Assembly: GCA_963622135.1 (NCBI GenBank)
Contig: CAVFGR010000008.1
Location: 150,218-214,217 of the forward strand
Direction: 5' to 3'
DNA: 64,000 nt
Source of the DNA: a bacterium
GTDB taxonomy: Bacteria > Bacillota_I > Bacilli_A > RFN20 > CAG-826
The notes below the pieces were generated by a model. The model was not told the DNA's origin. It saw only the letters and a list, made by a program, of their open reading frames with translations, and ran no database searches. A program made the position numbers and the translations under genes. Below are positions 19,971-64,000 of the stretch, in pieces (position 1 is the stretch's first letter; each line of letters starts with the position of its first letter).

Positions 19971-19972
19971 AA

Positions 19973-21586: not shown

Positions 21587-21698
21587 AAATAAGTCGCGCC
21601 GCTCCACTTTAGCGGCCTTGGCTAGATTATAGCCCCTAAGTTTCTTCTCTTAAAGAAAGAAGAAAAGAGCCCCCATATATGGAGGCCCAAATTTTCTT

Positions 21699-30554: not shown

Positions 30555-30608
30555 GATTTTTGAGATTCAGGGTGCCCCCGAAGGAGCACCCTTTCAGAGA
30601 ATTATCGC

Positions 30609-45833: not shown

Positions 45834-45834
45834 A

Positions 45835-47448: not shown

Positions 47449-48425
47449 TATTTCTTACCTCCCATACGAATACGAGGATCGACCCAGCCGTAGCTAAGGT
47501 CGACGATTAAGCCGCCGATAAGGCCAATCAAGACATAGAACATACCGACGAACAAGAAGACGTCGTAGTCGCGTCTGTTGATGGACTCTAAGAACAAGCC
47601 ACCGATACCACCGACGGCGAAGATGGATTCGATGACGACGGAACCGGATAAAATGCCGATGAACTCGCCTAAGATCATCGGGAAGATAGGAACCAAGGAG
47701 TTTTTGAATGCGTGTTTGATAGTGGCTTGAGTTCTGGTTAAACCAGTGGTTCTGGCCAATAACATGAAATCAGAGGTTAAGACTTCAGTTAGCTCAGCAC
47801 GAGTATAACGAGCGAAGCCGGCGATGGTGCCGAAGGACATCGAGATGATCGGCGCCAACATCGATTTGAACATTTCCGGGGCGAACCAGTTGCCGCCGTA
47901 AGAGGAAACCGGAGCCAAGGTCAAAGGAAGAATCTTCCAGACCGAACCGAAAAGATACTGAACCAAGAACGCATAAACGAAAGACGGAACCGAAATGAAC
48001 AACATGATGACGACTGACAAGATGTGGTCGATTGGTTTGTTTTTGCGCAAAGCCATCAAAATGCCTAAGCCGAGTCCGACAGGGACGGCAAAGATCATCG
48101 TGTAGATGTTGATAAGAATCGTTGGCGGCATTCTGTTGACCAGCAATTCCCATGGCGACGCTAACCAGGAGATTTGGAAGGAATAGCCGAAATTTCCACC
48201 ATCCGTTGCCGTAAATAAACGGACGAAATAGTTGAAGTACTGGACGATAACAGGATCGTTATAGCCCATTTCTTCTCTGAATCTCGCGGCGATTGCCTCA
48301 CCATCACTGCCTGGAGCTGAAATAAGAGGTACAGGTAAAGCCCTGACCAAGAAGAAGCAGATTGTGAAGATTACGAAGAATGTAAAGATTAACAATCCGA
48401 TACGTTTTAATACATACTTTAACAT
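47448..48425 (-). CDS. oppB: oligopeptide ABC transporter permease OppB
   Basis: MLKYVLKRIGLLIFTFFVIFTICFFLVRALP N-terminus typical of OppB/DppB; 325 aa; GAGGAG RBS. Confidence 0.9.
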   Translation of the reverse strand: MLKYVLKRIGLLIFTFFVIFTICFFLVRALPVPLISAPGSDGEAIAARFREEMGYNDPVIVQYFNYFVRLFTATDGGNFGYSFQISWLASPWELLVNRMPPTILINIYTMIFAVPVGLGLGILMALRKNKPIDHILSVVIMLFISVPSFVYAFLVQYLFGSVWKILPLTLAPVSSYGGNWFAPEMFKSMLAPIISMSFGTIAGFARYTRAELTEVLTSDFMLLARTTGLTRTQATIKHAFKNSLVPIFPMILGEFIGILSGSVVIESIFAVGGIGGLFLESINRRDYDVFLFVGMFYVLIGLIGGLIVDLSYGWVDPRIRMGGKK

Positions 48426-48450
48426 TCGTTAACTCCTCAGGCGTATAGGT

Positions 48451-48488
48451 ATCATACACGCACGGAACGAAAAGACAATTATTCTTTT
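48451..48488 (-). promoter_or_regulatory. promoter candidate for oppBCDF (TTGTCT-16-TATGAT on the minus strand)
   Basis: The minus strand reads ...TTGTCTtttcgttccgtgcgtgTATGATacctatacgcctGAGGAGttaacgaATG. Confidence 0.35.
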
Positions 48489-48751
48489 AGGTGGTTTGGT
48501 TAAAAAGGCCGAGCCATCGAGGATTGACATTATTGACTGACATTTGAATATCGCCAATCCATTTTCATTAAATAATGTTTCATGCATGGTTATCCGTTCC
48601 TTATGCGTTTTTGTTTACTAAAACCACTTTAAAAACGTGTAGGGGTGTCTAACATCGCTCAATTATAGGCATATTTTTCATATTTTAAGTTATGACGCGA
48701 AACAACTATTTCCATTTTTGCCAATCGTTAAAAATCCGAATTAGATAAGCA

Positions 48752-48780
48752 AACAAAAAAGCAGGTCAATTGACCTGCTT
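48752..48780 (-). terminator. rho-independent terminator after oppA (perfect palindrome GCAGGTCAATTGACCTGC plus U-run)
   Basis: 18-bp perfect palindrome at 48761-48778, followed on the minus strand by TTTTTTG. Probably makes oppA transcription partly independent of oppBCDF. Confidence 0.7.
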
Positions 48781-48799
48781 TGATGTATGAACAATTTTA

Positions 48800-51577
48800 T
48801 TATTGCTTATAGAGATCAGCGTTGATTTCGCCAGAAGCGATCTTCTGCGACCATTCGGAATTGGTGAAGTTGAAGGTCATGTAGCGGATTCCGCCGTAAC
48901 CCATAAGTGGGATATATTGTTCAGATCCATAGCTGACCTTGAAGGAAGTCAAGGTAGCGGAGGAACGGGCCAATAATGGCAAAGTGGACCAAGTGTTGAC
49001 ATATCCAGCTTCAAGTTCGGAAAGGATGTTCAACTTCTCGTTATGGCGGGCCTTGTAATCAGCGGCGTATTGAGCAGCGGATTCTGGATCATCCATATCG
49101 TAATCAGCCACGGAGACATCGGTGAGCGAGCTCAATAAGGAATACCATTCATATATATTCTTGGTTTCCTCGGTGCCGTCGCCATCGTAGTCGAAGGTGA
49201 GGTCGATCTTCTTGATCTTGTCGGTCATGCCATATTCGCAGTTGGAATCGAATTCAGCATCGCAATAGACTTCCATCAAGCCCCATGGGTTCATCTGAGC
49301 ACCACCCCAAGTAGAGAAGATGATGTCATAGTTGCCCTTCTTGGCTTCGTCATAGTAGTCTTCGTTCTCGGTCATGTAGTAATCAAACTTAATGACAGAA
49401 GAACCGGCGGCGTCGTTGACGGCTTGGGCCAAAGAATCGAGGGACGCTTTGATGAAGTTATAAGAGGCGATGGTGGTTTCGGAATCGGACTTGTAGACAA
49501 GGATTTCCATCGAGACGGTGTCGCCCTTGCTGAAGTGACCTTCCTGGGTGTCGGCGTTCTCGGTTTCGATAGCGCGCTTGAGATATTCAGCGGCTAAAGT
49601 GGAGTTATAGCCAACGTGGCTGCTATCGAGAGCCTGTCCGTTCTCTTCGTCGATGGTGGAGCCACCGAGGTGGTTATAGATCTTGCCATAGACGCTCTTC
49701 GCCTGAGTCGTGCCACGATAGAACTCGCCATTATCGGCATCAGAGATATAAAGGTTATTCAATAAGCCATAGAAAGCCTGAGAACCAGCGGTGCACTGAG
49801 AGACGTATTGGACACGGTCAATGCAGAGGGAGATGGCTTTGCGGAAGTCTTCGTTGGCCATGATGGTCTTATTGCCGGCATGGGTCGAAGTGGCGGCCTT
49901 TTGTCTCTTCAAGAGCTGCGCACGGGAGACGTTGAAGGACATCTTGGAAGTGTAGGAGGTCGGGGTGAACTGCAAACGGCTGGAAGCGCCGTATTTCTTC
50001 ATATCGGAAGCAGTCAACTCGATATCGTCGATTTCACCATTTTCAAACTTCTGCATAGCAGTGGTGTGGTTGTCGATGATTTCGGTCGTGATCTTCTCGG
50101 TCTGGAACTGACCTTCGTGCTTTCCATCGGTCCAGCCATACCATTTCTCATTCTTTTCGATTTCAATGAGCTTGTTGGACTGGAAGTTGGTGAGTTTGTA
50201 TGGGCCGAAGGATTTATAGTTGCTGGCAGAATCAGTGCCGTACTTGGTGGCCTTCAAGGAGGTACCAGCGACAGTGGTGGTCAATTTGTCGTAAAGTTCG
50301 ATATCGACCAACCAAGAGGAAGTCAAAGAGAACTTCAAGTCAGTCGCGGAGACCGGACTAGCGGAATCCATGATCAAACGGAGGGTGTAATCATCGATGG
50401 CTTCGATACCGACGTTATCGAAGTTGGTGATGCTGGAGTGGTTCTCGTATTCAGCGAACAATGGCAATCTCCAAGCATTGGTCTTATCAGCTAAGCCACG
50501 TGGAGAGCCAAGGGTCTTGATGAAATAGGTAAGATCCGCTTTGAGATCGTTCCAAGTGTAAGCGGTGTAGGAGGCTGGAAGGGATTCGCCATATTTGGCC
50601 AATTCGGATTCAGCAACGATTTTATCGCCGCTGACCTTGAGGCCCAATTCATCCCAATCGTATTGGGAGATATCGTAATCTCTCATTTCCTCGGTGATGT
50701 CGCTGGCGGTTTCAACATTTTTCCAGTCAGTGGAAACCTTAGAGCTTCCGAGAACGCCATCACGACGGATTTTGATAAGGCCTTCTTCGCAGGCATCGAC
50801 AATACGGGTCGCGGCTTTTTCAGCGGCGTCGACTAACTTCGTGCCACGCTGAGCTAAGACCGTATATAAGGAGCCTTCGGTGATATTTGAGAAGATAGCA
50901 CCAGCAAACGGGGAGTCAGCGCCGAGGTTGATATACCAAATATCGTTAGAAGCGAAGTCTGGGTCATCAGAATCGAGATTGCTGTTTCCTTTGATGTAGT
51001 TGTAGGCTGGTTCAACGGTGATCTGGCCGTTTTTGAAGTAAGCTTCAGCATTGGCGAGGATGGTGGTTCCTTTGTAGTAGCTGTCAGCGCGGTGATTAAC
51101 CATCTCAGGGTCGAGCAAACGCTTCATCGATTCGACGTAATCCTGCGCTTTGATCTTGGTTCCATCTTCCCAGCAAGCCGCCTCATTCAATTTGATGTCG
51201 TAGGCGATACCGCTCGGGAGGTTGACGCTAGAACGTCCGAAGTATTTTTGTTTTTCTTCTTTGGTCAATTCGGAAGTGACGTCTTTTGGCATTTCCGAGG
51301 CCATTTCGCATAAGAATTCATAACCGGATTTGTCGGCATTGAATCCGAGATCATAGAATCCCATTTCGGTATAACCCATGATGTAAGAATCAGAGTTGGT
51401 TTCCCAAGCATGCGAGTTCCAGGTTTTTGGGTTGGCATCGAGGTAGGTGCTTAAGGTGTAATCAGCCTTGCTTCCGCCAGATTTACAAGAAACCAAAGCG
51501 GCGACGGCGCCGAAGGACATGACCATAAGAGCTACCAGTTTCTTATTTTTCATACCTTGTATCCTTTCTTTTTTCAA
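48800..51577 (-). CDS. oppA: oligopeptide-binding lipoprotein OppA (925 aa, expanded)
   Basis: Lipoprotein signal MKNKKLVALMVMSFGAVAALVSCKSG and SBP family-5-like core with large insertions. Lies directly upstream of oppBCDF. Confidence 0.8.
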   Translation of the reverse strand: MKKERIQGMKNKKLVALMVMSFGAVAALVSCKSGGSKADYTLSTYLDANPKTWNSHAWETNSDSYIMGYTEMGFYDLGFNADKSGYEFLCEMASEMPKDVTSELTKEEKQKYFGRSSVNLPSGIAYDIKLNEAACWEDGTKIKAQDYVESMKRLLDPEMVNHRADSYYKGTTILANAEAYFKNGQITVEPAYNYIKGNSNLDSDDPDFASNDIWYINLGADSPFAGAIFSNITEGSLYTVLAQRGTKLVDAAEKAATRIVDACEEGLIKIRRDGVLGSSKVSTDWKNVETASDITEEMRDYDISQYDWDELGLKVSGDKIVAESELAKYGESLPASYTAYTWNDLKADLTYFIKTLGSPRGLADKTNAWRLPLFAEYENHSSITNFDNVGIEAIDDYTLRLIMDSASPVSATDLKFSLTSSWLVDIELYDKLTTTVAGTSLKATKYGTDSASNYKSFGPYKLTNFQSNKLIEIEKNEKWYGWTDGKHEGQFQTEKITTEIIDNHTTAMQKFENGEIDDIELTASDMKKYGASSRLQFTPTSYTSKMSFNVSRAQLLKRQKAATSTHAGNKTIMANEDFRKAISLCIDRVQYVSQCTAGSQAFYGLLNNLYISDADNGEFYRGTTQAKSVYGKIYNHLGGSTIDEENGQALDSSHVGYNSTLAAEYLKRAIETENADTQEGHFSKGDTVSMEILVYKSDSETTIASYNFIKASLDSLAQAVNDAAGSSVIKFDYYMTENEDYYDEAKKGNYDIIFSTWGGAQMNPWGLMEVYCDAEFDSNCEYGMTDKIKKIDLTFDYDGDGTEETKNIYEWYSLLSSLTDVSVADYDMDDPESAAQYAADYKARHNEKLNILSELEAGYVNTWSTLPLLARSSATLTSFKVSYGSEQYIPLMGYGGIRYMTFNFTNSEWSQKIASGEINADLYKQ

Positions 51578-51708: not shown

Positions 51709-52854
51709 ATGAACAATACCAAACGAATCTTATTTTTGCTGCCATTGGCGCTTCCTTTATGTTCCTGCAACACAGGTGCTCCGACCGAGGTCTCTTTCGA
51801 GATGACTTCTAGCGAAACCGCTAGCATCCATACCGAACTTCAGGAAAAATTTTTAAACGTCAAAGAAAACGACTCTTTCATCGCCGCTCAGGGCGATACC
51901 TTCGCTAGGACCTCTCAATCCAAGCCAAATCCCGTCAAATTTTCTTGGAAATATAAGGACGATACGACCAAGAAGCCAAGCAAGGCAATCGTCACCTTGG
52001 CGGAAGACCAGAAGATGTCAATCAACAAGATGTCTTATGCCACCACCGAAAAGGAAATATCCATCTACAATTTGAAGATCAATACAAAGTATTACTACAC
52101 GGTTACTTTGGATTATGATGGGGTGAAGTTCACTTCGGAAATCTATAGCAAAACAATCACCGATAAAGCCATCAGAAATCTATACATTGATGGGGTGAAA
52201 AACGTGAGGGACATCGGCGGATACGAAGTAGATGGCGGCATCATCAAGCAAGGCCTTTTGTACCGTTCGGCGGAATTTAACGGAGAGTTTAATTCCATCG
52301 TTACCGCTTCCGGCAAAGAGGAATTAGTCAACACCTTGGGCATCAAGTCAGATATCGATTTAAGAAGAACCACCGCTTTCGCCCAACCGAAAGACGAGAT
52401 TCATTCAATCACCGAATCACCATTAGGATCGTCCGTCAAATGGGTTTCCCTCCCAATGTATTTCGGCGGAACCAACATCTATACCCAACTTTGCAATACT
52501 GACAATATCAAAGCGTTCTTTGAATATCTGGCTGAACCGACTAATTATCCCGCTATTTTCCATTGTGTTCGTGGCACCGACCGCACCGGAGCGTTGAACT
52601 ACGCCTTAGGAGCCCTTCTCGGCATGAACGAAGAGCAATTGATGAAGGATTATCTTTTCTCCAATTTCGACGATCTTGACTCCGATCCGTTAAAGACAAC
52701 CAATATCTCCGGCAAAGGGATGTATGTCTATCTGATCAATCAAGAAGAAGGAGATACCTTATCTCAGAAAGCCGCCAATTACTTGATGAATAGAATCGGC
52801 GTTTCTCAAGAAACCTTAGATAGCATCAAAAATATCCTCATTGAGAAGAAATAA
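51709..52854 (+). CDS. secreted lipoprotein with protein-tyrosine-phosphatase-like domain (Y_phosphatase3 family, CX5R motif)
   Basis: Lipoprotein signal MNNTKRILFLLPLALPLCSC. Active-site loop HCVRGTDRTG (PF13350 consensus HCtaGkDRTG) in the C-terminal domain. Confidence 0.7.
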   Translation: MNNTKRILFLLPLALPLCSCNTGAPTEVSFEMTSSETASIHTELQEKFLNVKENDSFIAAQGDTFARTSQSKPNPVKFSWKYKDDTTKKPSKAIVTLAEDQKMSINKMSYATTEKEISIYNLKINTKYYYTVTLDYDGVKFTSEIYSKTITDKAIRNLYIDGVKNVRDIGGYEVDGGIIKQGLLYRSAEFNGEFNSIVTASGKEELVNTLGIKSDIDLRRTTAFAQPKDEIHSITESPLGSSVKWVSLPMYFGGTNIYTQLCNTDNIKAFFEYLAEPTNYPAIFHCVRGTDRTGALNYALGALLGMNEEQLMKDYLFSNFDDLDSDPLKTTNISGKGMYVYLINQEEGDTLSQKAANYLMNRIGVSQETLDSIKNILIEKK

Positions 52855-52893
52855 GGCAAAAGAAAAAGCAACCATTCAAGGTTGCTTTTATTT

Positions 52894-53976
52894 TTAGGCT
52901 GCCGCTTCCCACTTGGCTAACAAAGTTAAATTGCCAGGGATAATCGTTAAGTCGGTGAATTGGCCAGAATTAGGATTGGTTGGATCGGTGAACCAGCCTT
53001 TGAAGACATAGCCGTCATATTCAGGGATTTGAATATTGGACAAAGCCATCGTCTTCCCGACATAACCGGTCGAAATGATGGCGTTCGTGCTAGTGGTTCC
53101 AGCCCAATGCCCGCCATTAGGGTCGAACATGATGCTGCAAGGAACGTCGGTCGTTGTCGTTTCGGCCTTCATGCAGAAGAGAGGTGTCCAAGAACCATTG
53201 TTTTTGACGTAAACCCAGCCGGTCGAGATATTGACATAATAGTCACCATCAATGGCGTTAGGGGCGACGATGTCGTTTGGGGTAGAAGCTCCATACATCC
53301 ACTGGGTGGCGTGCGGTTTAGGGAAAGTCAGATCCTCGCTCGTGCCATCGGAATAAGTGACGGTAAGGCAATATTCGGTCGTGGTCTGTTTCGAATCATC
53401 GATGGTTACGGAGGCGATGCCTAAGCCGTTGGTTAAATCCAATTCGACTGGTTCTAGTCCTTCATCGGTGAAAGAAATGACGATATGATAGCCGGTTGCG
53501 GTTGGGGTGGCCACGATGTTGGAGATGCCATTGCCCCTCGGGATGGTAATAACTTGGGAGACGGTCTCATCAGAATAATTGAACTGAAGGGTGGTATTGC
53601 CGTTTTCGTCATGGTCGACAGTGACGCCGGTGACGGAAACGCCCTCATAATAAGGGATGGTAAATGAGATAGGATCAACACTTTCGTCAGAGAAGGTGAT
53701 CGTGATGGTGTAGCTATGATCATCATTGTCTTTCAAAGTGGCCGAAGTGATGGAAACGCCGTCTTTGCCAGGCAATCCCTGTGGGATGGTAACGGTGAAT
53801 GGATCCTTATCCTCGTCGGTGAAATAGAAAGTGATGACGGTGTCGCCCGTAGCGGCGTCATAGCTAGTCTCGAACGAGCTTAAGGCATATTCGTTGCTGC
53901 CAAAAAACCCGCAGCTGGTCAAACCGCCCGCTAATAAGGCTGAGGATAAAGCCAACAATAAACCTTTCTTTCTCAT
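52894..53976 (-). CDS. lipoprotein with five ~35-aa tandem modules and a C-terminal Listeria-Bacteroides repeat domain; last gene of the 8-gene operon
   Basis: Lipoprotein signal MRKKGLLLALSSALLAGGLTSCG. Repeated modules: TVITFYFTDEDKDPFTVTIPQG, YTITITFSDESVDPISFTIPY, TLQFNYSDETVSQVITIPRG, HIVISFTDEGLEPVELDLTNG and CLTVTYSDGTSEDLTFPKP. C-terminal MFDPNGGHW...PEYDGYVFKGWFTD...LTLLAKW matches the Flg_new/LB repeat. Confidence 0.7.
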   Translation of the reverse strand: MRKKGLLLALSSALLAGGLTSCGFFGSNEYALSSFETSYDAATGDTVITFYFTDEDKDPFTVTIPQGLPGKDGVSITSATLKDNDDHSYTITITFSDESVDPISFTIPYYEGVSVTGVTVDHDENGNTTLQFNYSDETVSQVITIPRGNGISNIVATPTATGYHIVISFTDEGLEPVELDLTNGLGIASVTIDDSKQTTTEYCLTVTYSDGTSEDLTFPKPHATQWMYGASTPNDIVAPNAIDGDYYVNISTGWVYVKNNGSWTPLFCMKAETTTTDVPCSIMFDPNGGHWAGTTSTNAIISTGYVGKTMALSNIQIPEYDGYVFKGWFTDPTNPNSGQFTDLTIIPGNLTLLAKWEAAA

Positions 53977-56459
53977 ATACTTGCTCCTTTCGCATAATTA
54001 TCTTGCAAATCCTTGATGGTCGGGGCTTTCCCGAACAATGAAGGGGTATCGGTTCCAACAACGTCGTTGGTAACAAATTTAAACGGATGGGTGCCCGTGG
54101 CCATGATGACCGCTTTGGCGAAGATTTGGGTGTACCACGCTTCGTTGATGAAGCGATTGCCGATATTCGCCGCCACCAAATCGACGATGACATTAGAAGA
54201 AAAATCATTCTCACCGGTCAGAGAAATAACGCCCCAATCGGAGCCGTTCAATCCACCGCCGTAATAGGCAATCTTCGTATTGGCGTATTGTTTTCCGTCC
54301 CTCTCGTATAAGCATCCCATCTCTTTCAAAGATTCTTTAAGCATGCTCTTGATTGGGAAGAAGTCATCGATGGTGATGTTGATGTCATGCCCCGCCAAAG
54401 AGGAGGCGATACTTGAGATATTTTCGTCAATCAATGAAGAGACATCGATGGAATCAACATCCTTCCAATCATAGAAATTGGTGTTCCCTTCAATCGATAA
54501 ATCAATAGGCCTGGAGGTGCCACCGATCATATTCGGAATGACGGTCCCTCCTAATATGGAAGTGACTAGCTGAATCGGTGTCGGAAGCCCAGAGTAGAGA
54601 TAACCGCCATTGAAGGAAGTCTCAAGGGCGATGGAGAAGATGCCGGAATTATAGAAAGCGGTGTCGTTGACCTTCATTTTGTGTGGGGCGTTGAAATTTA
54701 CCGTATTATCTAATGCGTTTTGGGTATGTCCCAGCAATTGGACCATCTCATCATCGCTATAATCCTTGTAAGACTTGGTCACGTATTTTTGAATCAATTG
54801 CATATAAGTGTTGTCGCTTGAAGCCTCGCGACCGCCAAAAGCATTTCCGATAAAAGCCGAATAAATGGAATTGGCCGTCCCCGAAGCGGATGAAGTATCG
54901 CCAAAGAAATCATTGAATGACTTATTGACCGCCTCGTTATGGACATCATATATGACGCTCTTTTCAGAGTTAGGTTTGGAAACATCATTGGATCCGACTT
55001 TGAGCAAGAATTCGCAGGCGTTTCTCAAGATGCAGTTGTCCAATTCGAAACCATCTGCCTCAAAAGCCCTGACGGCCACCTTGCCATTCTGAATAATGGA
55101 GTTGGTGATTTTGTTTCCTTGGCCATAAACGTCCACAACCGTGCCGACATACGTGAGATTGTACATATCGTCGGTATTGTTGGTGTTGGAGACTAGGACG
55201 TTGTCCAAAGTGATGTTGTTGCCGTCAAGGTAAATGCCTGAGTTATCTTGTCCCAAAGCCTTCACCATGAAGTTTTCTTCCAATGGACCGATGGTGACGA
55301 AAGGAAGAGGACCTTTGAAAAGGTCTTCGTCTCCCGGCATCAGTTTGCCATTCTTGCCAATGGATCCATGGCTTGGATAGGCAAGCTCATGGAAATTGAG
55401 CGTGAACCCATTGCCATAGAAATCCTTTTGGACATGGATGCCAGAGATAATCTCTGGTTTGAAGTCCGTCCCCATTTGCGAATTGTACTGATCAATGAAT
55501 TCATGATTGTAAGTTGTCTCGAAACGATAGACATCGTCCGCGAAACTGAATTCTTTGTTCTTCCAATCGTAATGGCCCATCAAGGAAGTGTTGTCTTTGA
55601 GCTTGGTGTCGTTATATCCACCATGCGCATAAACATACGTGTTTTTCATGGACTCGAGGTTCACTTGGAGGACGGCCTTTTCCCCGTTGGAGGAAAGGTT
55701 GGTCGCCATCAATAAGTCATCATAGGAATAGATGTTATAAGCACCGTCGATGACTTCGAATCGATAAGTCCCACGGATCCATGACTGTTCTTTGGAAGCC
55801 AAGGTGAAATACGAATCACCGGCTCCCTTTATGATAATTTTTCCGTCCTCATAATCGAGGTTGGAAGATTTATCCACCAATTCGACTTCTTGACCGATCT
55901 CCGTCTCGAAATAGACGGTCGAATCAAATTCGATGGTGGCTGGTTGGTTACTATAGGAATCCTTGATCAAGGAATTGTAAACAAAGTCGTACATGCCATA
56001 GGTGCGGTATGTTTTCACCGAATTGCCCGAGATGGCACGTTTGTCGTTGATGGTAATCGTCCCGTTTTCGAAAATGGTCGCGGTGAAATAGCGAGATACC
56101 GTTCCTCTTTCGTTGGAACAGGTGACTTTTACGTCCCCTTCCTCTAAAGCATAAAGGAAATAGGAACCGTTGTTTTTCGTGACCGCGGCTTTTTCAGTCG
56201 AGCTGCCATTTAGTTCGCTGACTGACCAAACCAAATCATTGCCAGGGGCCAAAATCAGGGATTCATCGATGCGTGGAGAGGCCTCAAGAGCGATAGGCAT
56301 CGCCGGATCGGCCTTGAACGCCATAGTGTCCAAATACGCCCAATCGATGCCCAAAATATCGGAAGCCACCGTGTTGTTCAAGGCGACGACGGAGACGAAG
56401 GCAAGGATAGCCACGACAAAGGGGATAACCAACAAAATAGGAAGCGTCTTGTTCTTCAT
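53973..56459 (-). CDS. large secreted/anchored right-handed beta-helix (pectate-lyase-fold) protein (~828 aa)
   Basis: N-terminal signal anchor MKNKTLPILLVIPFVVAILAFVSVVAL. PbH1-like repeats follow (NITLDNVLVSNTNNTDD..., ITNSIIQNGKVAVRAFEADGFELDNCILRNA). Start reset to ATG 56457-56459 with a GGAGG RBS; ATGA overlaps at both ends. Confidence 0.65.
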   Translation of the reverse strand: MKNKTLPILLVIPFVVAILAFVSVVALNNTVASDILGIDWAYLDTMAFKADPAMPIALEASPRIDESLILAPGNDLVWSVSELNGSSTEKAAVTKNNGSYFLYALEEGDVKVTCSNERGTVSRYFTATIFENGTITINDKRAISGNSVKTYRTYGMYDFVYNSLIKDSYSNQPATIEFDSTVYFETEIGQEVELVDKSSNLDYEDGKIIIKGAGDSYFTLASKEQSWIRGTYRFEVIDGAYNIYSYDDLLMATNLSSNGEKAVLQVNLESMKNTYVYAHGGYNDTKLKDNTSLMGHYDWKNKEFSFADDVYRFETTYNHEFIDQYNSQMGTDFKPEIISGIHVQKDFYGNGFTLNFHELAYPSHGSIGKNGKLMPGDEDLFKGPLPFVTIGPLEENFMVKALGQDNSGIYLDGNNITLDNVLVSNTNNTDDMYNLTYVGTVVDVYGQGNKITNSIIQNGKVAVRAFEADGFELDNCILRNACEFLLKVGSNDVSKPNSEKSVIYDVHNEAVNKSFNDFFGDTSSASGTANSIYSAFIGNAFGGREASSDNTYMQLIQKYVTKSYKDYSDDEMVQLLGHTQNALDNTVNFNAPHKMKVNDTAFYNSGIFSIALETSFNGGYLYSGLPTPIQLVTSILGGTVIPNMIGGTSRPIDLSIEGNTNFYDWKDVDSIDVSSLIDENISSIASSLAGHDINITIDDFFPIKSMLKESLKEMGCLYERDGKQYANTKIAYYGGGLNGSDWGVISLTGENDFSSNVIVDLVAANIGNRFINEAWYTQIFAKAVIMATGTHPFKFVTNDVVGTDTPSLFGKAPTIKDLQDNYAKGASI

Positions 56460-58072
56460 AAGCGAGCCTCCATATGATAGAAAGCCTTTTTGCAGCGAGT
56501 CCCGATTCCGACAAAGAACGGGGTAAGGCAAATAAGGACGAACGAAATTTCAATGATATAAGCGTAAATAGGCTTCAATCTCGCGTAGGTGGTGAGCAAG
56601 AAATGCGAAGCCAATAAAAGAATAGGCAAGGTAAGGGGAACGAAATTGTTCCAGACCTTAAGCTTTGATTTGGAATCGGTGTGGTCGTGCATGTCAGCAT
56701 AAAGTCCGAAGACATTATTCCAGACGATCATGATGGTTCCGATGATGAAGGATGCTAAAGCGACCTGCCAGGTGATGGAAGAGAAAGCCAGTAAGGCAAT
56801 CAAGGAAACCACAAAGCTCGCTTCCGAGAAAATAAACGGAATGGCTAGCTTGCAGAATATTTGGGTTTTGACTGGAATCGGTAGGTATTTGACGATTTGT
56901 ACGCATTTCTTTTCGCGGCTGATGGATAAGGAAGCCGAAGCGTTGATAACGCCAGCGAAAAGCAAGATAACGCACAGATTAATGGCTGAGACCAATTCAG
57001 GGAAGTAAGCGGCATAGAACTTAAGATCATCAAAGATGACACCGTTTAAGGAAGAGATGACCGCGTAAGTAAGGAATGGGGCCATGATAAGCAACGAAGT
57101 ATAAGAGAACATATTCATGTCATCCCTGAACAAAAGGTCCATTTCTTTTTTAAGAAGGGCTTTGGCCGGAGAGACCATTTTCATCGGTTTCTTATCGATT
57201 TTGACCTTGGCAAGGCGGATATCGCCAGTGCGCATCATCTTCGTGTAGGCGGCAGACGCCACGGTGATACCGATGAACAAAGATAAAACGGTCATGCCCA
57301 AGAAGATGGCGGCATTCTGGAAGATATTGGTGCTCGTAACAACCATCATACAGACATTTCTGACCGGCAATAAGTATGTCGAGGCGTTATCAATCCAATT
57401 CATGAAACTATCGGAGAAAACTCCACCGATGGAAGAATCGCTTAAAGCCATCAAGAACATGTCTAAGGCGAGTTTATAAACGTAACATAAGGCAATCATC
57501 AAGACGCAAGCGATGACAAATTGGGCAATCGCGCTTCTTTTAACCAATTTATACAATGCTTGGTATCCGACCGAGAGAAGAAGCGACATACCGGTCGTGA
57601 ACAAAGAAACGAAGAATGGGTAAAGAATGGCAAATACGATGAACCTCGCGATAAGGCCATGCGAGATGCCAAAACAAATCAGGATAGGGGTGGCGATGAC
57701 GGCTTCCAAAATGATTTGATTAAGATAAACAAAGATAATCTTTGACGAAATAATATCGGATGACGAAATAGGCAAGCTTAGGAGAATGGTGCTGTCTTTT
57801 TGATTAAAGATGGTCTTTCTCGCGGAAACCATCGAATACAGGATGCTAGCCAGCATTCCAATAAATAAGAAGAAGACCAAGAACGAGAAAGAGCCATGGT
57901 CCGAATAGGCTGTGAGCTTTTTATGAATCGCCAAGGTAAGGAAGCATTCCAAGGCGATGAAAATGGCGGCGAAAAGGAGCCTGAACAAATAAGAAAAGAC
58001 AACCGAAAGAACGGATCTGTTGGACAGATTCATTCTGGTTAAGAATTCCTTTCTTATAAGTTCAATGAGCAT
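56456..58072 (-). CDS. ABC transporter permease, ~12 TM (ABC-2/EcsB-like), no substrate-binding protein partner
   Basis: 538 aa of hydrophobic helices, 6 nt downstream of the ABC ATPase gene. Confidence 0.7.
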   Translation of the reverse strand: MLIELIRKEFLTRMNLSNRSVLSVVFSYLFRLLFAAIFIALECFLTLAIHKKLTAYSDHGSFSFLVFFLFIGMLASILYSMVSARKTIFNQKDSTILLSLPISSSDIISSKIIFVYLNQIILEAVIATPILICFGISHGLIARFIVFAILYPFFVSLFTTGMSLLLSVGYQALYKLVKRSAIAQFVIACVLMIALCYVYKLALDMFLMALSDSSIGGVFSDSFMNWIDNASTYLLPVRNVCMMVVTSTNIFQNAAIFLGMTVLSLFIGITVASAAYTKMMRTGDIRLAKVKIDKKPMKMVSPAKALLKKEMDLLFRDDMNMFSYTSLLIMAPFLTYAVISSLNGVIFDDLKFYAAYFPELVSAINLCVILLFAGVINASASLSISREKKCVQIVKYLPIPVKTQIFCKLAIPFIFSEASFVVSLIALLAFSSITWQVALASFIIGTIMIVWNNVFGLYADMHDHTDSKSKLKVWNNFVPLTLPILLLASHFLLTTYARLKPIYAYIIEISFVLICLTPFFVGIGTRCKKAFYHMEARL

Positions 58073-58078
58073 ATTCTC

Positions 58079-58873
58079 TTATTCTTCTCCGTAAGTGCTA
58101 AAGAAGATGCGGGCTAAATCCCTTCTCTTCATTGGGTTCGCCTTGAAATCGATGAGTTCGCTGACGACGCCGTTATTGATGATGGCGACCCTATCGCAAA
58201 CCTTGGTGACTAAATCGATGTCATGGGAGGTGATAAAGACGGTTTTCCCGTTTCTGGCAAACTCTTGGATCATGTCGATCAAGGTCTGATAAACGATGAT
58301 GTCCAAACCGACTGTCGGTTCGTCCATAATCCAAATCTTTGGGTTATGAACCAAGGACGCCATGAGGCAGATTTTCTGCTTCATGCCGTGGGAATAGCCG
58401 CTGATACGACGATTTAAATCCTCTTCAGGCATCTTGAATTTCTTTTGGATGAAGGCCATGTTCTTATCGAAAGCTTCTTGGAACATGCCGTATGAAGAAC
58501 CGATAAACTCAAGATAGTCTTTGCCAGTCATCATCTCATAGGCCGTAGGCTCAGAAGAGACATAACCGATGCATTTTTTGGCTTCCAATGGCTTAAGTTC
58601 GATGTCGTTGTTGCAGACATAGATTTTGCCGGAAGTCGGTTCTTTAAGGCCAACGATGCAATCGATGGTGGTCGATTTGCCGGCTCCGTTTTTGCCAATA
58701 AAGCCAAAGACTTCGCCTTTATGGACTTCAAGGTTGATGCCCATGAGGACGTCTTTGTCGGCATAGGATTTTTTAAGGTCTTCGATCACTAAGACATTAT
58801 TGGGGTCTTCGGATGGGGAAAGCTCTTTTGGCTCTTCGGTTTCTATGAGCAATTGCTCTTCTTTTTCTGCCAT
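58079..58873 (-). CDS. ABC transporter ATP-binding protein (exporter-type, single NBD)
   Basis: Walker A GKNGAGKST, signature ISGYSHGMKQKICLMASL and Walker B IWIMDEPTVGLD; 264 aa. Confidence 0.9.
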   Translation of the reverse strand: MAEKEEQLLIETEEPKELSPSEDPNNVLVIEDLKKSYADKDVLMGINLEVHKGEVFGFIGKNGAGKSTTIDCIVGLKEPTSGKIYVCNNDIELKPLEAKKCIGYVSSEPTAYEMMTGKDYLEFIGSSYGMFQEAFDKNMAFIQKKFKMPEEDLNRRISGYSHGMKQKICLMASLVHNPKIWIMDEPTVGLDIIVYQTLIDMIQEFARNGKTVFITSHDIDLVTKVCDRVAIINNGVVSELIDFKANPMKRRDLARIFFSTYGEE

Positions 58874-60294
58874 TATTTCTTCCTCCTTCCTATACTGGTC
58901 AACCAGACTAAGTCACGGTTGTATTGCGGGAGAATCGAGTAAGCCGTCCCGCAGATGGCGCAGATGTAATTCTCGCCGGTGAATGATATTTCTTCGCTTC
59001 CGCAGAACGGGCAACGGTCGCGATATAAGCCGATCGATGATTCAAACAACATCATCATCGAGGCTAAGACGTTACGGATGAGAACCGCCCCATCCTTGCG
59101 GTAATAAGAGAGGTTTATGACGTCTGCGAATTGCTTAAGGACGTTCTTGGCGGTTATAAGCAAGACATCGTCATATCCTGGTTTGGAATCGATGATGGCC
59201 TGAATGGTCTTTTGATTCCTTTCGGTGTAGGAATGGCTGACGATGAGATAATAGGTGGCTTTTCTCTTTTCGTTGTTCTTCTTCTTACCACCCATATAGA
59301 AGACTTTGCATTCGATTCCGTTGTTTTCTCTATCCAAACGGAAGATGAATGAGAAGTTGTCTTTTCTGACCCTTAGTGACTGCATGTCGATACGGCCATA
59401 TTCATCGATGAAGATGGAAGGGGAATTGTCCGGTTCCATTAACTCGGTCGTCGCGAAGTATTTGGCAAAGCCCGTGATGACATAGTTGTAATAAAGGGCA
59501 TCGTTCTTGCTATCATCGTTCTTATTGCTGTAATAAGAAACGTGCATCTTGTAGCAATAATTGTATTTAGGGTCGTGGATAAGGATATTGGTCGGGATGA
59601 CCGAACGATTGAATTTCTTATTGGAAGAAAGACGATAGAATTCCGTTCCTTTAAGATTCTTCAATCTCTTTTGAAGCTTTCTCACCAAGAGAAGCAATTC
59701 ATCTCTTTTGTCCGATTCAGATGAAATCATGAATGGAGTGTAGGGAGCCTTAGATTTGGCGAATTCCTTAAACATCGATTTCTGGCCAAAGGTCTTATCC
59801 GTCCTTTCGAAGTGTTCCTGCAAGGATTCCACGAGAGGAGAGATGTCGCTCATGATAAGATCGACGTCTTCGGCCAACTCATCGATGAACATCGAGATGA
59901 ATTGATTCTCATAGGTATTTAAGGTCTCGGTGTTTTGCAAGGTGTGGACGAATTCCGGAGACATCCCTCCATTCTTCCTTTTCCAGAGCTTTGGATCCCT
60001 CATCGTTTCCGAGAAGGATTCATGAGACAAAGCCCCGGATAATTCAGAATGAATGATGACTTCCTCGGTCGCCGCTTTGATATGGGGATTGGAGACTATA
60101 GCCATAATCTTGTCGGTGGCCGAGCGAATTCTTTCCGCATGGACTAGCTGTTCTTCACAGTCGAAGTCGACGCTGAAAGGGAAGGAGGCCTCTTTGAACT
60201 CTTCGGAATAGACTTTTAAGCCATTCCCAAGGACATTCTTCAGGCAATCCGTGAAATCTCCTAAAAACGATTGGGAAACTAATTTCTCTTTCAT
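58873..60294 (-). CDS. McrC-like partner candidate: 473-aa protein with putative PD-(D/E)xK-like motif and C-terminal Cys4 zinc ribbon
   Basis: Sits immediately downstream of the McrB-like gene. Possible nuclease core IFIDEYG...(25 aa)...GIECKVFY. Zn ribbon CPFCGSEEISFTGENYICAICGTAY. The family assignment is by context plus weak motifs, not firm homology. Confidence 0.45.
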   Translation of the reverse strand: MKEKLVSQSFLGDFTDCLKNVLGNGLKVYSEEFKEASFPFSVDFDCEEQLVHAERIRSATDKIMAIVSNPHIKAATEEVIIHSELSGALSHESFSETMRDPKLWKRKNGGMSPEFVHTLQNTETLNTYENQFISMFIDELAEDVDLIMSDISPLVESLQEHFERTDKTFGQKSMFKEFAKSKAPYTPFMISSESDKRDELLLLVRKLQKRLKNLKGTEFYRLSSNKKFNRSVIPTNILIHDPKYNYCYKMHVSYYSNKNDDSKNDALYYNYVITGFAKYFATTELMEPDNSPSIFIDEYGRIDMQSLRVRKDNFSFIFRLDRENNGIECKVFYMGGKKKNNEKRKATYYLIVSHSYTERNQKTIQAIIDSKPGYDDVLLITAKNVLKQFADVINLSYYRKDGAVLIRNVLASMMMLFESSIGLYRDRCPFCGSEEISFTGENYICAICGTAYSILPQYNRDLVWLTSIGRRKK

Positions 60295-60329
60295 GCGTGC
60301 ACGCGTACCTTAAATGTATTGATAAACAC

Positions 60330-62144
60330 TTATAACTTGCGCAATAAGCGGTCTATCATGTGGTTGGTCTGTGGGAATTTGCCTTCCCCATAGGTTTTGA
60401 TGATCAAAGACTTGAGATTCATCAAGCCTGGCTTGATATAGTCTTCGAAACGTCCGTCTAATTTGGCAACGACCTTGCGGGCGAACATGAAATCCAAGGC
60501 ATCTTCCTTGCTTCCGCCGCATTCGACGAAGACCGGAACAAAGTTCTCAATCTGGTTCATGATACGGTTGCCGTAAGTGATATCGAAGGTATCGTAGGCA
60601 AAGTCAGCGATGATACGGAAATTGTTCATATCCTTATTGGACATCTTGTTTTCTTCTTTGCCTTTGGCTTCGGCAAACAAAGCCTGGAGTTTATCAAAGG
60701 ATAAGGTGATCTTAGAGACATCGCCTTCGATCTCGAATGGCTCGTTGCGGTCATCGAAATCGATGGTAATGGCACGGTCATAAACCTTATCGGTGATGGT
60801 ATAGGTGGAATCATCCTTGTTTGCGGTTCCGATGAAATAGGTGTTGGCAGGAATTTTCAAAATACCGTCCTGCAAATGTTCTGGAGCCTCGAAATCATAC
60901 GGGAACTGCATGATTTTGATCTTCCATTCATCGATTGGATATTCCAAAACCGACAAGAAGTCAGCGAAATAGTATTCAATACGCGAGATATTCAATTCAT
61001 CCAAAACCATGAAGTTCAAATTGCTTGGTTTATAGGAATATTCGTATAAGCGTTTTAAGAATTCGGTTTCGTTATAACTTCTGGAGAAGTCGTTGTAATA
61101 GCCAAGGATGGAGGTTTTATCTCTCCAAGTGGCCTGAACGGCTTCAAAGAAGGATTTCTCGGAAACAAATTCAGAGAAATAACGAGCCAAAGAAGATTTA
61201 CCGGTGCCGGATAAACCTTCAAGGATGATGAAACGGGAAGCGGCCAAACCAGCGACGAATTCGCGGATGATGGTCTCGCTATAATAAAGCTTCAATTCTT
61301 TGGCCAAATAGTTTCTGAATTGAGAGCATAAATCTCTTAAGTTGATGTTGTCGTCGAACATTTGCTCTCTATAGCCAATATAGGCATAATCGACCGAGCA
61401 TAAGCCAGGGAAGACTCTTTCTTTGTCGCTTAAGACACCAGCCTCGCCACCGATTCCAGCTCCGGCCACGCCGTTTCCATTGCCGGCGATGCCATTCCCA
61501 TTAGATTCTCCAAAGGATTCGGCCAAAGAACCTTGATCGGCCATCGCGGCCGCGGCTTCTTCGGCTTCCTTCTTTTCTTCTTCGGCGAGTTCGTCGCCGT
61601 GCTTTCCGAAGAACCTCCAAGGTTCATCGATACGCCTGACATTGACCCATAAGAAGGAAATGTTGAGGATCAATAAGGCCAAGAAGACAAAGAAGATGGT
61701 TCCGACCGCTAAGGACTCAGCGAAATACAAATAGCAGAGTCTTACGGCCTCCGGATTCCATGGATGCAACGAAACATAAGAAATACCGCCAAAGAACGCG
61801 GTAGATAAAATAATCGTCGCAATATAGATAAGGACGTATTTGGCCGAGCCACCCTTCTTTTCGTAATACATCGCGGTGCGATATTCGAAGATGAGGGCGC
61901 TGGTGAGGAACATCGCATAAACGAAGAAGATCAATAACAAGGCCCATCTGTGCCATGTTCCTTCAACGATGATGTTAAATCCTAATGCGATGCCTAATTT
62001 CTGGAACGGGTTGTTCTTAGCGAAGATGCCGATGTCACGATCTAAGCCGAGACCGGCAATAATCACGAACGCCGCCCAGAAAAAGACCACGGTGAGAATA
62101 AGCAAATTCTTACGCGTGAAATGAGTTCTCTTTTTCTTGCTCAT
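60330..62144 (-). CDS. membrane-anchored McrB-like AAA+ GTPase (N-terminal 4-TM domain, Gly/Ala-rich linker, C-terminal McrB/AAA_5 module)
   Basis: Residues 1-160 carry four TM helices. The C-terminal module aligns with E. coli McrB: GLSGTGKSSLARYF (Walker A), VQATWRDKTSILGYYNDF (versus VQFHQSYSYEDFIQGY), FMVLDELNISRIEYYFADFLSVLE (versus FIIDEINRANLSKVFGE) and NTYFIGTANKDDST...DKVYDRAI (versus NVYIIGLMNTADRS...DYALRRRF). ATGA overlap with the sipW-like gene. Confidence 0.7.
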   Translation of the reverse strand: MSKKKRTHFTRKNLLILTVVFFWAAFVIIAGLGLDRDIGIFAKNNPFQKLGIALGFNIIVEGTWHRWALLLIFFVYAMFLTSALIFEYRTAMYYEKKGGSAKYVLIYIATIILSTAFFGGISYVSLHPWNPEAVRLCYLYFAESLAVGTIFFVFLALLILNISFLWVNVRRIDEPWRFFGKHGDELAEEEKKEAEEAAAAMADQGSLAESFGESNGNGIAGNGNGVAGAGIGGEAGVLSDKERVFPGLCSVDYAYIGYREQMFDDNINLRDLCSQFRNYLAKELKLYYSETIIREFVAGLAASRFIILEGLSGTGKSSLARYFSEFVSEKSFFEAVQATWRDKTSILGYYNDFSRSYNETEFLKRLYEYSYKPSNLNFMVLDELNISRIEYYFADFLSVLEYPIDEWKIKIMQFPYDFEAPEHLQDGILKIPANTYFIGTANKDDSTYTITDKVYDRAITIDFDDRNEPFEIEGDVSKITLSFDKLQALFAEAKGKEENKMSNKDMNNFRIIADFAYDTFDITYGNRIMNQIENFVPVFVECGGSKEDALDFMFARKVVAKLDGRFEDYIKPGLMNLKSLIIKTYGEGKFPQTNHMIDRLLRKL

Positions 62145-63394
62145 ATAATGTTCTCCGTATCATCAAGATGATCAAAGAAGGAATCATAATCCTTTTCCTT
62201 TTCGATCTTTGGCTTTTTGCGGGCTTTTTTCTCTTTCACCCGTTTTTTCGAAGGAGCCTCCTCCGTATCGGCTTGCTTTTCCGATTTGGTTTCGCCTACT
62301 GAGACCGCTGGAGAGAAAGGCTTAGCAGGTGATTCTTCTTTTTCGAGCGTCTCCGCTTCAGGCAAAGAAGAAGTTGCCTCTGGCTTGGATTCGCTAAGAG
62401 TCTCTTCCTTATTAGAAGGAATCTTCGCGCCTGCCGATTCTTCGGCGATGGCTTTGTTCACATCAATTCCTTCTAATAAGAAGGAGGTGACGAACTTACC
62501 AGATTCGAAGACATGGCAGTTTCCGTTAAAGAAGATGGTTTCTTTATATTGAGTGACGACAGAATTCTTGTCGTCGACTTCCGGATTGAAGTTGAGGGTC
62601 TCCAAGAGGGTTTTTGTCCTCTCATCGACCGCTTTGGAATACTTATTGCTCAGACGATCGTACATCAATAAGCAATAGATGATGCTGACGATGGTAATGA
62701 TGCCAGCGTTGGATTGGACAAAGATGATGAAGATGCCTAGATCTGGCACTTTATGTCCGGTGTAATAACCAATGATGTCATCATAGGTCAGATAGCCTTC
62801 ATAAAGGTTGTTGTCATCATCGATGGAGTTTTTATCGCCGCGGGTATGATAGGCTTTCGTGCCGTCAGACAGAGTTTCGATAACTCTGATACGATGGACG
62901 ACGACCGTTCCCGAGCGGGATTTATAGGCGATAACATCATATAGATTGATGTCATCTTCGGAATCGTATGGGGCTAAACCGATAATATCGTGCGCATTGA
63001 ACTGATTATCCAAATTGTTTTCCACTAAGTAAGTGTTATTGGAGTTTTGCAACGACATTGAGTCGGTCGCGATGACGATGAAGGAAGCTTTGCCGAACAT
63101 CAACACGTTGTTTGAGAAACGACAATACATCGAAAATACGAAAAAGGCGCTAATGGCGCCCATGATCACGTATTCGGTGATTCGAAGGGCCTTTTTTAAC
63201 CCTCTCTTCGTTTTGTTGTTGGCCTCTTTTTGTTGATAGACGGCTTGCTCGATCAAATCAGCGTCTTCACGGCCGATCTTCACGTTTTCGATGTTCGTGT
63301 AATAGTAATTACGGAACAAGATCGTGAAGACGACCGAGAAACTGATTACGCATACGAGGGTTACCACCAAAGAAATGATTTCTACTGATGACAT
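62141..63394 (-). CDS. sipW: SipW-type (S26B, ER/archaeal-type) signal peptidase I with a ~170-aa charged C-terminal cytoplasmic extension
   Basis: N-terminal TM, catalytic-Ser region IVIATDSMSL, VVVHRIRVIE matching the SipW/Sec11 His box, a second TM LGIFIIFVQSNAGIITIVSIIYCLLMY, then a Lys/Glu/Ser-rich tail. 417 aa versus about 190 aa for B. subtilis SipW. Confidence 0.7.
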   Translation of the reverse strand: MSSVEIISLVVTLVCVISFSVVFTILFRNYYYTNIENVKIGREDADLIEQAVYQQKEANNKTKRGLKKALRITEYVIMGAISAFFVFSMYCRFSNNVLMFGKASFIVIATDSMSLQNSNNTYLVENNLDNQFNAHDIIGLAPYDSEDDINLYDVIAYKSRSGTVVVHRIRVIETLSDGTKAYHTRGDKNSIDDDNNLYEGYLTYDDIIGYYTGHKVPDLGIFIIFVQSNAGIITIVSIIYCLLMYDRLSNKYSKAVDERTKTLLETLNFNPEVDDKNSVVTQYKETIFFNGNCHVFESGKFVTSFLLEGIDVNKAIAEESAGAKIPSNKEETLSESKPEATSSLPEAETLEKEESPAKPFSPAVSVGETKSEKQADTEEAPSKKRVKEKKARKKPKIEKEKDYDSFFDHLDDTENII

Positions 63395-63444
63395 AAGCCC
63401 CTCCTTTTCATGGGTATTATAAGTTTGGTATTAGTATATCAAAC

Positions 63445-64000
63445 TTATTTAGAAGTGACTTCAATTAAGAAACTGACGTTCTTATCCGTTGCGGCTGCAA
63501 CTGCGTTATTCATCGCATTGATGCCTTCGATCGCGGCATTGACCGCAGTCTGATCAGCATCGTTGTTGGCTGGGTTATCATTGCCGAAAGTCGATCCCCA
63601 CATCCAGTTGACCGTGATTGTGACGGTCACAGAAGTATTTGAGGAATCGATGGCGCTGATATTCCAATCGTAGCCGTTTGATAAGGTGCCGGATTTGGTC
63701 GTTCCGCTCTTTTCAGTGGAATAATCAGTTCCGGTGCTGGTATAGAGAGTAACCTTATTTCCCGAATTAGCCGAAGGGTTAGTGATGTAGTTGCTGGTGG
63801 CAAGATCAGTAAGAACCTGCGGATAAGTCGGAGTGATGGTTAATTCATTTAACCTTGTGTTTAAATTCGCGCTTGTGAGCGTGAATTGGAATTGAACGCT
63901 AAGATGTTCGACATCGTTGATTTCTCCGTCTCCGGTAAATCCAGCTTGAATCAAGCCAGTATTATCGGAGGATTCTGGACCAAATACCACATAAGCGGTT
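63445..64000 (-). CDS. secreted Thr/Ser/Asn-rich protein, C-terminal part (gene continues beyond the window end); candidate SipW substrate
   Basis: The ORF stays open to the window edge, and the composition suggests a beta-rich extracellular protein (...SVTVTITVNWMWGSTFGNDNP...). It lies directly upstream of the sipW-like gene, like tapA/tasA in the Bacillus tapA-sipW-tasA arrangement. The N-terminus is not visible. Confidence 0.45.
   Translation of the reverse strand, partial: TAYVVFGPESSDNTGLIQAGFTGDGEINDVEHLSVQFQFTLTSANLNTRLNELTITPTYPQVLTDLATSNYITNPSANSGNKVTLYTSTGTDYSTEKSGTTKSGTLSNGYDWNISAIDSSNTSVTVTITVNWMWGSTFGNDNPANNDADQTAVNAAIEGINAMNNAVAAATDKNVSFLIEVTSK

Follow-up and report, generated by a model that had tools for sequence, protein, structure and literature searches.

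The analyzed window, 64,000 nucleotides of contig CAVFGR010000008.1 (GenBank assembly GCA_963622135.1, positions 150,218 to 214,217) from a bacterium of the lineage RFN20, carries at its end a gene cluster in which a GTPase assigned to the McrB clade, tied to the membrane by four transmembrane (TM) helices, and a McrC-like partner that has lost the nuclease residues are strictly co-inherited with a signal peptidase, small secreted proteins, an ATP-binding cassette (ABC) exporter, and two surface proteins, the motifs of both the GTPase and the peptidase being intact. McrBC is the textbook case of DNA restriction. For this operon, the likeliest reading, with chances that appear about evenly balanced, is that it would encode a multi-protein envelope machine, devoted to a surface structure or to export and not to DNA restriction, in reduced-genome, often wall-less, host-associated Bacilli. 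The eight genes and the hairpin that bounds them are given below with the letters used in the text.

63445-64000, minus strand: s, 3' part of a small-subunit gene, coding for the C-terminal 184 residues, Thr/Ser/Asn-rich; cut by the window end
62141-63394, minus strand: W, 417 residues, predicted SipW/SEC11-type (S26B) signal peptidase
60330-62144, minus strand: B, 604 residues, predicted McrB-clade AAA+ GTPase, NxD variant, with a four-TM N-terminus
58873-60294, minus strand: C, 473 residues, McrC-like partner with DUF2357 and a zinc ribbon
58079-58873, minus strand: A, 264 residues, ABC transporter ATPase of the DrrA/ABC-2-like group
56456-58072, minus strand: P, 538 residues, polytopic permease with about 11-12 TM helices
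53973-56459, minus strand: H, 828 residues, large extracytoplasmic protein with a single N-terminal TM/signal anchor
52894-53976, minus strand: L, 360 residues, lipoprotein with lipobox LTSC, internal repeats, and a C-terminal Listeria-Bacteroides repeat
52864-52889, both strands: terminator-like hairpin with a 10-bp stem and T-runs on both strands, at the operon 3' end

A membrane-anchored GTPase and its nuclease-less partner

The TM helices of B lie at residues 14-32, 68-86, 101-119, and 147-165 in a Kyte-Doolittle scan, the method used here for all TM helices, and they are followed by an acidic, Gly-rich linker and the AAA+ domain. The sole sequence match of B in the PDB is McrB from E. coli (PDB code: 6hz4), with the nucleotide motifs aligned, and a comparison of the B orthologue profile with E. 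coli McrB by hhalign gives a probability of 89% and an E value of 2e-6. Moreover, the Walker A (GLSGTGKS), the Walker B (VLDE), and the signature N442-K-D444-[D/E] are invariant among 11 diverse B orthologues. Against the Pfam AAA_5 model, B scores 20.2 bits, with a gathering cut-off of 22, and a few orthologues have a precomputed match to this family (PF07728). Judged by these sequence features, B is a member of the McrB clade in its NxD variant, as the original prediction of a four-TM McrB-like GTPase had it. Placement of B in the MoxR or another AAA_5 clade was considered and is excluded by the PDB match being McrB alone and by the NxD signature.

In searches against Pfam and NCBIfam, B matches no DNA-binding family, and residues 1-170 form the four TM helices instead. 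Since the N-terminus is basic and the number of TM helices is even, the positive-inside rule indicates that the GTPase domain should be cytoplasmic. The family is large, with more than 3000 matches, 7983 representative clusters of relatives at E<=1e-3, and carriers in at least 567 species-level genomes. The best 120 matches are all full-length and 53-100% identical, so that the sequence conservation of B resembles that of a core gene more than that of a defense gene.

The partner C passes the gathering score of Pfam DUF2357, as do 12 of 24 orthologues, this being the N-terminal domain of McrC that binds and stimulates McrB (PMC11090510). Across the 24 aligned orthologues, invariance is limited to L103-W104, P113-E114, Y128-E129-N130, N236, Y244, and four Cys, the latter forming a C-terminal CPxC...CxxC zinc ribbon. 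No triad resembling PD-(D/E)xK is conserved in this alignment, and no member of the C family matches a nuclease family. No TM helix is detected in C by the Kyte-Doolittle scan. The AlphaFold2 model (pLDDT of 77, on the predicted local distance difference test) presents a helical N-terminal half, in which long helices at 128-151 and 194-215 flank a disordered insert (154-193), an alpha/beta C-terminal half, and the ribbon; the alpha/beta half is not conserved. Based on the lack of conserved PD-(D/E)xK residues and of any nuclease-family match, C is predicted to be McrC-like in the part that engages the GTPase, with the nuclease chemistry lost. Then, of the NTPase-nuclease pair proposed at first, the McrC-like protein with its zinc ribbon is borne out by DUF2357 and the four Cys, whereas the nuclease is not. 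An active restriction enzyme, also considered as a candidate, is discarded because the nuclease residues are not conserved in C.

Conservation of the gene set

For the comparison of gene neighborhoods, 80 species loci were fetched, their open reading frames (ORFs) called, and the products labeled by iterative hidden Markov model searches. In all 70 loci that could be tested upstream, one or more s genes followed by W immediately precede B; downstream of B, the series C-A-P-H-L is found in 55 of 57 testable loci, the other two being artefacts of ORF calling. The position between W and A is taken by the B-C pair in each of the 80 species, and the median gaps from W to L range from -1 to 5 bp in the 80 loci. 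In these loci, B is 42-87% identical and the flanking genes are unrelated. The original prediction had proposed conservation of the neighborhood as a check, and the gene set is kept in all 80 species genomes examined, which come from RFN20-like Bacilli, Acholeplasmatales, and Anaeroplasmataceae.

In two more distant loci (B 36-37% identical), all the families are retained in the order s-W-B-C-L-s'-X-A-P-H, s' and X being two further genes described below, which means that the blocks [s W B C], [A P H], and [L s' X] have been reshuffled with their content preserved. Nothing else argues as strongly for a functional coupling of the McrBC-like pair to the rest of the set as this combination of reshuffled order and retained content.

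Many loci extend past L with s', a divergent small protein of 200-235 residues with a G-F-S-S-W signal, and X, an ORF of about 1000 residues without family match (for example, at 19364-21842 of locus L001, and also in L010, L014, L015, L020, L060, L063, and others). The genome of the window is without s' and X.

The carriers include Candidatus Enteromonas, Candidatus Onthovivens, "uncultured Mollicutes", Acholeplasmatales, Anaeroplasmataceae, and Anaeroplasma bactoclasticum. Candidatus Enteromonas corresponds to the GTDB order RFN20 (PMC8035907), and many reduced-genome Bacilli of these groups are predicted to be peptidoglycan-deficient (PMC10868615). Some contigs with the cluster (L007, L017, L021, L038, L051, L062, and L069) bear the names of Bacteroidota in their deposited records (Alistipes shahii, Alistipes onderdonkii, Bacteroides uniformis, Prevotella, and Paludibacteraceae, among others) and are probably mislabeled bins.

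The signal peptidase and the small secreted proteins

W matches the NCBIfam models SipW and sigpep_I_arch with an E value of about 4e-13 in both cases, under the cut-offs (49.5 against 190 and 49.3 against 51.85, respectively), and only the C-terminal two-thirds of these models, that is, the catalytic part, aligns to it. The profile of W orthologues also matches human SEC11A/C (E 6e-11). In the alignment of 22 orthologues, S112-M113, H167-R168, G186-D187, and D193 are invariant, so the catalytic Ser of the SGSM box, the His of the HR box, and the Asp of the GDxN box are all retained. In addition to the catalytic part, W has an extra TM helix, also conserved, at its N-terminus and a cytoplasmic extension at its C-terminus. 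The invariant Ser/His/Asp set together with the SEC11A/C match suggests that W is a divergent, extended S26B peptidase that looks active, in agreement with the SipW-like enzyme originally proposed.

The s gene of the window is one of at least two paralogues, and its full-length orthologue is a protein of 271 residues (P0121). In related loci, 1-7 paralogues precede W, most often 2. A common N-terminal organization is found in 176 of 226 small proteins, consisting of a Lys/Arg-rich start, about 17 hydrophobic residues, and then G-F-[AS]-x-W-[VI]-[IV]; in distant relatives F-A-x-[FY] replaces G-F-[AS]-x-W. The G-F-[AS]-x-[WFY] element behind the hydrophobic core seems akin to a region, G-T-[FW]-A-x-F, of the signals that depend on SipW. 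Near the C-terminus, a nearly invariant W-G-x-x-F-x-x-x-N-P is present (residues 221-230 in P0121), which may be a site of contact between subunits or of recognition by W.

The AlphaFold2 model of s (pLDDT 79) corresponds to an immunoglobulin (Ig)-like sandwich with a C-terminal helix, residues 1-46 being unstructured. No relative of the family is found in Pfam, NCBIfam, or the PDB, and TasA is not among the PDB sequence or structure matches. The search for homologues returns 2 matches from the single sequence and 25 from an alignment, such small numbers being due to the fast divergence of the family. On this predicted structure, the s proteins are best described as Ig-fold proteins with a signal, forming a new family that evolves fast; they are unrelated in sequence and predicted fold to the TasA/TapA-like substrates that the original prediction had in mind. 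By analogy with SipW and TasA, W would cleave s after G-F-[AS], and the N-terminal strand freed in this way would mediate polymerization.

Several independent assemblies, from the species of the window and from sister species, break at the array of small genes or just upstream of it (the window end at 64000 and the starts of L003, L085, and L086), which suggests that paralogous repeats or strain variation make this point hard to assemble.

Relation to known systems

At the outset, no described system was known to match this locus. However, Bell et al. (eLife 2024; PMC11090510) had already given the name CoCoPALM to a signal-peptidase-linked pair of the McrBC-like kind, and they described a branch of McrB GTPases in which the signature NxD is "usually followed by E or a second D". 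CoCoPALM comprises NxD GTPases that carry an FtsB-like TM/coiled-coil fusion, together with associated genes of the signal-peptidase family; the McrC homologues are often without nuclease, and the analysis was deferred to a later paper (PMC11090510). For the same authors, all of the NxD clade consists of type IV restriction systems in derived form (PMC11090510). In the literature, no follow-up on CoCoPALM was found, nor anything beyond Bell et al. on SipW-McrB, SipW-Acholeplasma, or PDC-M26.

A comparison of motifs with the published description shows that B has the same NxD signature, with D or E behind it. Also in common are the fusion of the GTPase to a TM N-terminal region, the adjacent gene of the signal-peptidase family (here W, overlapping B in the window), the McrC homologue reduced to DUF2357 without active nuclease, and a predicted envelope-related role other than restriction. 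Nonetheless, the published proteins have an FtsB-homologous single TM helix and coiled coils on both partners, whereas B has four TM helices and a short acidic, Gly-rich linker and seems to have no long coiled coil, the nearest feature being an acidic, helix-like stretch of about 25 residues; C has two long helices beside its disordered insert. As far as sequence can be compared with a description, the locus resembles CoCoPALM in a four-TM variant. In that paper there is no gene-level description of the small secreted paralogues, of the ABC exporter, or of H and L, and the literature does not describe this accessory set, to which s' and X also belong.

With canonical McrBC (E. coli, Thermococcus gammatolerans), the locus shares the AAA+ GTPase core with Walker A, Walker B, and Nx(x)D, a partner whose DUF2357 N-terminal domain contacts and stimulates the McrB hexamer, and the adjacent genes in the order B then C. 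The differences are that B is membrane-anchored and has no DNA-binding N-terminal domain, that C is without conserved PD-(D/E)xK residues, that the signature is NxD and not NxxD, and that the pair is found inside a secretion and surface operon with the conservation of a core gene. Since the DNA-binding and nuclease features were looked for and are not there, the locus, as read from its sequences, is not a canonical McrBC restriction system.

The CoCoNuT systems fall within the same GTPase sub-clade, with 40-46% identity across a stretch of about 360 residues, and their McrC homologues, often with the nuclease inactivated or absent, likewise carry zinc ribbons. However, these systems are cytoplasmic, with coiled coils of about 400 residues and with HEPN or other nucleases linked to them, and no such feature is present here.

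The tapA-sipW-tasA locus of B. subtilis and other SipW/TasA-camelysin loci are similar in placing a dedicated S26B peptidase beside its presumed secreted substrates. However, W is double the length of SipW, having one more TM helix at the N-terminus and a cytoplasmic domain at the C-terminus, and those loci are without GTPase or ABC exporter. Given that the substrate family and its fold do not correspond, this is not a TasA locus.

Finally, an analogy can be drawn with type IV pili and type II secretion, where a hexameric cytoplasmic NTPase and a polytopic membrane platform are combined with a dedicated processing peptidase and several paralogous small subunits. Nevertheless, no component is homologous, the hydrophobic core of s precedes the conserved G-F motif, unlike in pilus signals, and the enzymes are a serine S26B peptidase and an AAA+ GTPase in place of an aspartic prepilin peptidase and a PilB-type ATPase.

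Proposed mechanism

In the envelope machine that we propose, the Ig-fold s proteins would be inserted by the Sec pathway through their basic/hydrophobic N-terminal signal ending in G-F-[AS]-x-W, and they would be trimmed by the dedicated S26B peptidase W. The trimmed proteins would then build up a surface structure or be released as one, which could be a filament, a sheath, or a matrix. B, presumed to be a hexamer with 24 TM helices, and C would act at the cytoplasmic face as a GTP-driven motor or checkpoint, and the coupling would take place through the TM domain of B and possibly also through the cytoplasmic extensions of W. The B-C pair would have been exapted from a type IV restriction ancestry. 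The A/P exporter, H, and L would be outer or accessory parts, joined by s' and X in relatives. In short, we infer that the s proteins are substrates of W and polymerize, and that B and C form the motor.

A bolder version of this proposal is a new class of filament-assembly machine in gut Bacilli with a reduced wall or none; a GTPase ring derived from McrBC, with the nuclease-dead McrC as a plug, would there drive the extraction and polymerization of the SipW-processed Ig-fold subunits. This specific version is tentative and more likely wrong than right.

A possible defense role for the GTPase pair

Several observations weigh against the envelope machine, or against the identity of the locus with CoCoPALM in the strict sense. 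With respect to the latter, no DivIC/FtsB match is found in B with Pfam, and hhalign of its N-terminus against E. coli FtsB gives a probability of 0.06%, a weak test as the template is a single sequence. With respect to the processing of s, the SipW-cognate signal TIGR04088, which the original prediction proposed to look for in the first gene, and Peptidase_M73 are unmatched in 13 full-length small proteins and 7 N-terminal peptides (NCBIfam, Pfam); TIGR04088 is unmatched even by the more TasA-like F-A-x-[FY] variants of L096 and L098.

The remaining observations refer to the GTPase pair itself. B matches the candidate-defense profile PDC-M26A of PADLOC with an E value of 1e-37, through the GTPase core. 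Moreover, pairs resembling B-C exist outside the operon. In L091 (9164-14905), a four-TM B (GTPase domain 59% identical) and a C are present without W, A, P, H, or L and adjoin an AAA_21/RloB pair and a recombinase-like gene, a setting that looks like a defense or mobile context for a two-gene module, and in L093, L090, and L088 B-C-like pairs are also found without W. Such pairs indicate that B-C is a separable module that can function, or at least persist, alone, and from their sequence context the stand-alone copies may have a defense role.

From here, B-C could be regarded as a self-contained membrane-associated module against phages or plasmids, acting in defense or abortive infection, that became fixed in an unrelated surface-protein operon. 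This would agree with the view of the NxD clade held by Bell et al. and with the fact that the nearest relatives of the GTPase domain include CoCoNuT-like proteins with long coiled coils. However, C has neither conserved nuclease residues nor another effector domain nor a PADLOC match, and of PDC-M26 only the A profile is met, on B, the partner profile being unmatched by C and by the other proteins of the cluster. Also, the pair keeps the same slot between W and A in every species, with reading frames that overlap or nearly so, and it stays with the same gene families where the order is shuffled. Its conservation is that of a core gene and, in the window, the cluster lies among housekeeping and transport genes and not in a defense island. 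On balance, a defense role in this operon seems unlikely.

More generally, the GTPase domain of B is 40-60% identical to proteins with other N-termini, either different TM domains or CoCoNuT-type coiled coils of about 400 residues. L088 (5092-13235) contains two tandem McrB-like GTPase genes (441 and 458 residues), each followed by an unannotated gene (498 and 377 residues), and then an 874-residue protein with a transglutaminase core; by its gene content, this appears to be another uncharacterized architecture of the same GTPase clade.

Exporter and surface proteins

A matches Pfam ABC_tran (E 1e-27), and its matches to NCBIfam models of the drrA/GldA type are under cut-off. The orthologues of P carry 12TM_1 (PF09847), the scan of the window protein showing about 11 TM helices. 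An ABC_tran ATPase with an adjoining polytopic permease corresponds to a predicted ABC exporter, which is how the two genes had been read at the outset.

The H protein is taken to start at the ATG behind a GGAGG ribosome-binding site (828 residues), the TTG-initiated ORF of 852 residues being a mechanical maximum; its TM helix, at 32-50 of the longer frame, corresponds to residues 8-26 of the protein. The H of the window has no match in Pfam or NCBIfam. Beta_helix is matched by 4 of 23 orthologues (best E 3.3e-5), a phage-depolymerase C-terminal domain is found in 1 of the 23, and a profile search of the PDB gives nothing significant, only a polygalacturonase with an E value of 0.18. By these matches, H may contain a right-handed beta-helix region. 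Of the beta-helix exoprotein of about 830 residues first described, then, the size stands, whereas the fold is weakly indicated, by a minority of the orthologues and not by the window copy. L matches Pfam Flg_new above the cut-off (E 1.6e-8) and also TIGR02543, in line with the Listeria-Bacteroides repeat initially read in this lipoprotein.

These features allow for an operon that serves mainly for the export and display of H, as a possible glycan depolymerase or adhesin, and of L, where the ABC transporter exports, the s proteins are anchors or pistons similar to pseudopilins, and B/C regulates. The A-P-H block is inseparable in both gene arrangements, L bears the surface repeat, and the depolymerase and beta-helix matches among H orthologues would fit such a product. 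Nonetheless, H has an ordinary N-terminal signal anchor, for which a special exporter is not needed, and the beta-helix assignment is weak for the window H. Moreover, the s family, with 2-7 copies, is the most expanded and the fastest evolving of the set, a pattern typical of a structural or antigenic main product. This makes the display of H and L an improbable main purpose, to about the same degree as defense.

A device for nucleic-acid translocation, that is, DNA uptake or transfer in wall-less cells with s as a pseudopilus, would recall that McrB is believed to translocate DNA (PMC11090510), that the GTPase is membrane-tethered, and that C ends in a conserved four-Cys zinc ribbon, but with a TM domain in place of the DNA-binding N-terminal domain of B and no gene for a channel, nuclease, single-stranded DNA-binding, or recombination protein accompanying the cluster, it is very improbable.

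Operon layout and neighboring genes

Between 52894 and 64000, all eight co-directional ORFs of the minus strand are present where the original prediction had placed them. When the junctions are read directly, ATGA overlaps are found at W/B, P/H, and H/L, and a one-base TAATG overlap at C/A, the other gaps being 50, 35, and 6 bp. Therefore, of four ATGA overlaps and gaps of 0-50 bp described at first, three overlaps are as stated, the fourth is of the TAATG type, and the gaps are 6-50 bp. No convincing internal promoter or terminator is detected in the operon, where promoter-like sites are rarer than in shuffled sequence. Given this spacing, the eight genes are likely one transcript, which is supported by the equally tight spacing in 80 other genomes.

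The hairpin at the 3' end is bidirectional and separates L from a convergent lipoprotein gene with a Y_phosphatase3 domain (51709-52854, plus strand). An Opp-type peptide ABC importer also adjoins the cluster (42562-51577, minus strand), with unusually long OppD/OppF-like ATPases (639 and 450 residues) and a 925-residue SBP_bac_5 lipoprotein alongside. The importer and the phosphatase gene stand beside the cluster in the species of the window only. Further away in the window, two tandem giant ORFs (26970-34232, minus strand; 1194 and 1207 residues) have no Pfam match at E<=1e-5, and ORFs at 38186-39937 (583 residues) and 40110-41816 (568 residues) are likewise without annotation.

Implications

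The available data describe a GTPase/activator module of McrBC that is without its DNA-binding and nuclease parts, is tied to the membrane, and is inherited in the manner of a core gene with a secretion and surface set, its carriers (at least 567 species-level genomes) including many uncultured reduced-genome gut Bacilli. If the operon encodes a surface machine, it would bring a new energy-coupling principle to the biology of pili, matrix, or secretion, and the CoCoPALM idea would for the first time be pictured concretely, gene by gene. If the more specific filament assembly were true, it would plainly show the motor of a restriction enzyme exapted for envelope biogenesis, with a GTPase ring in the place of a PilB-type ATPase, a sortase, or a chaperone-usher system. 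Carriers of the Anaeroplasma type are candidates for culture work. Finally, in an envelope machine of this kind, the s paralogues would be the main variable surface antigens of abundant and poorly known gut bacteria.

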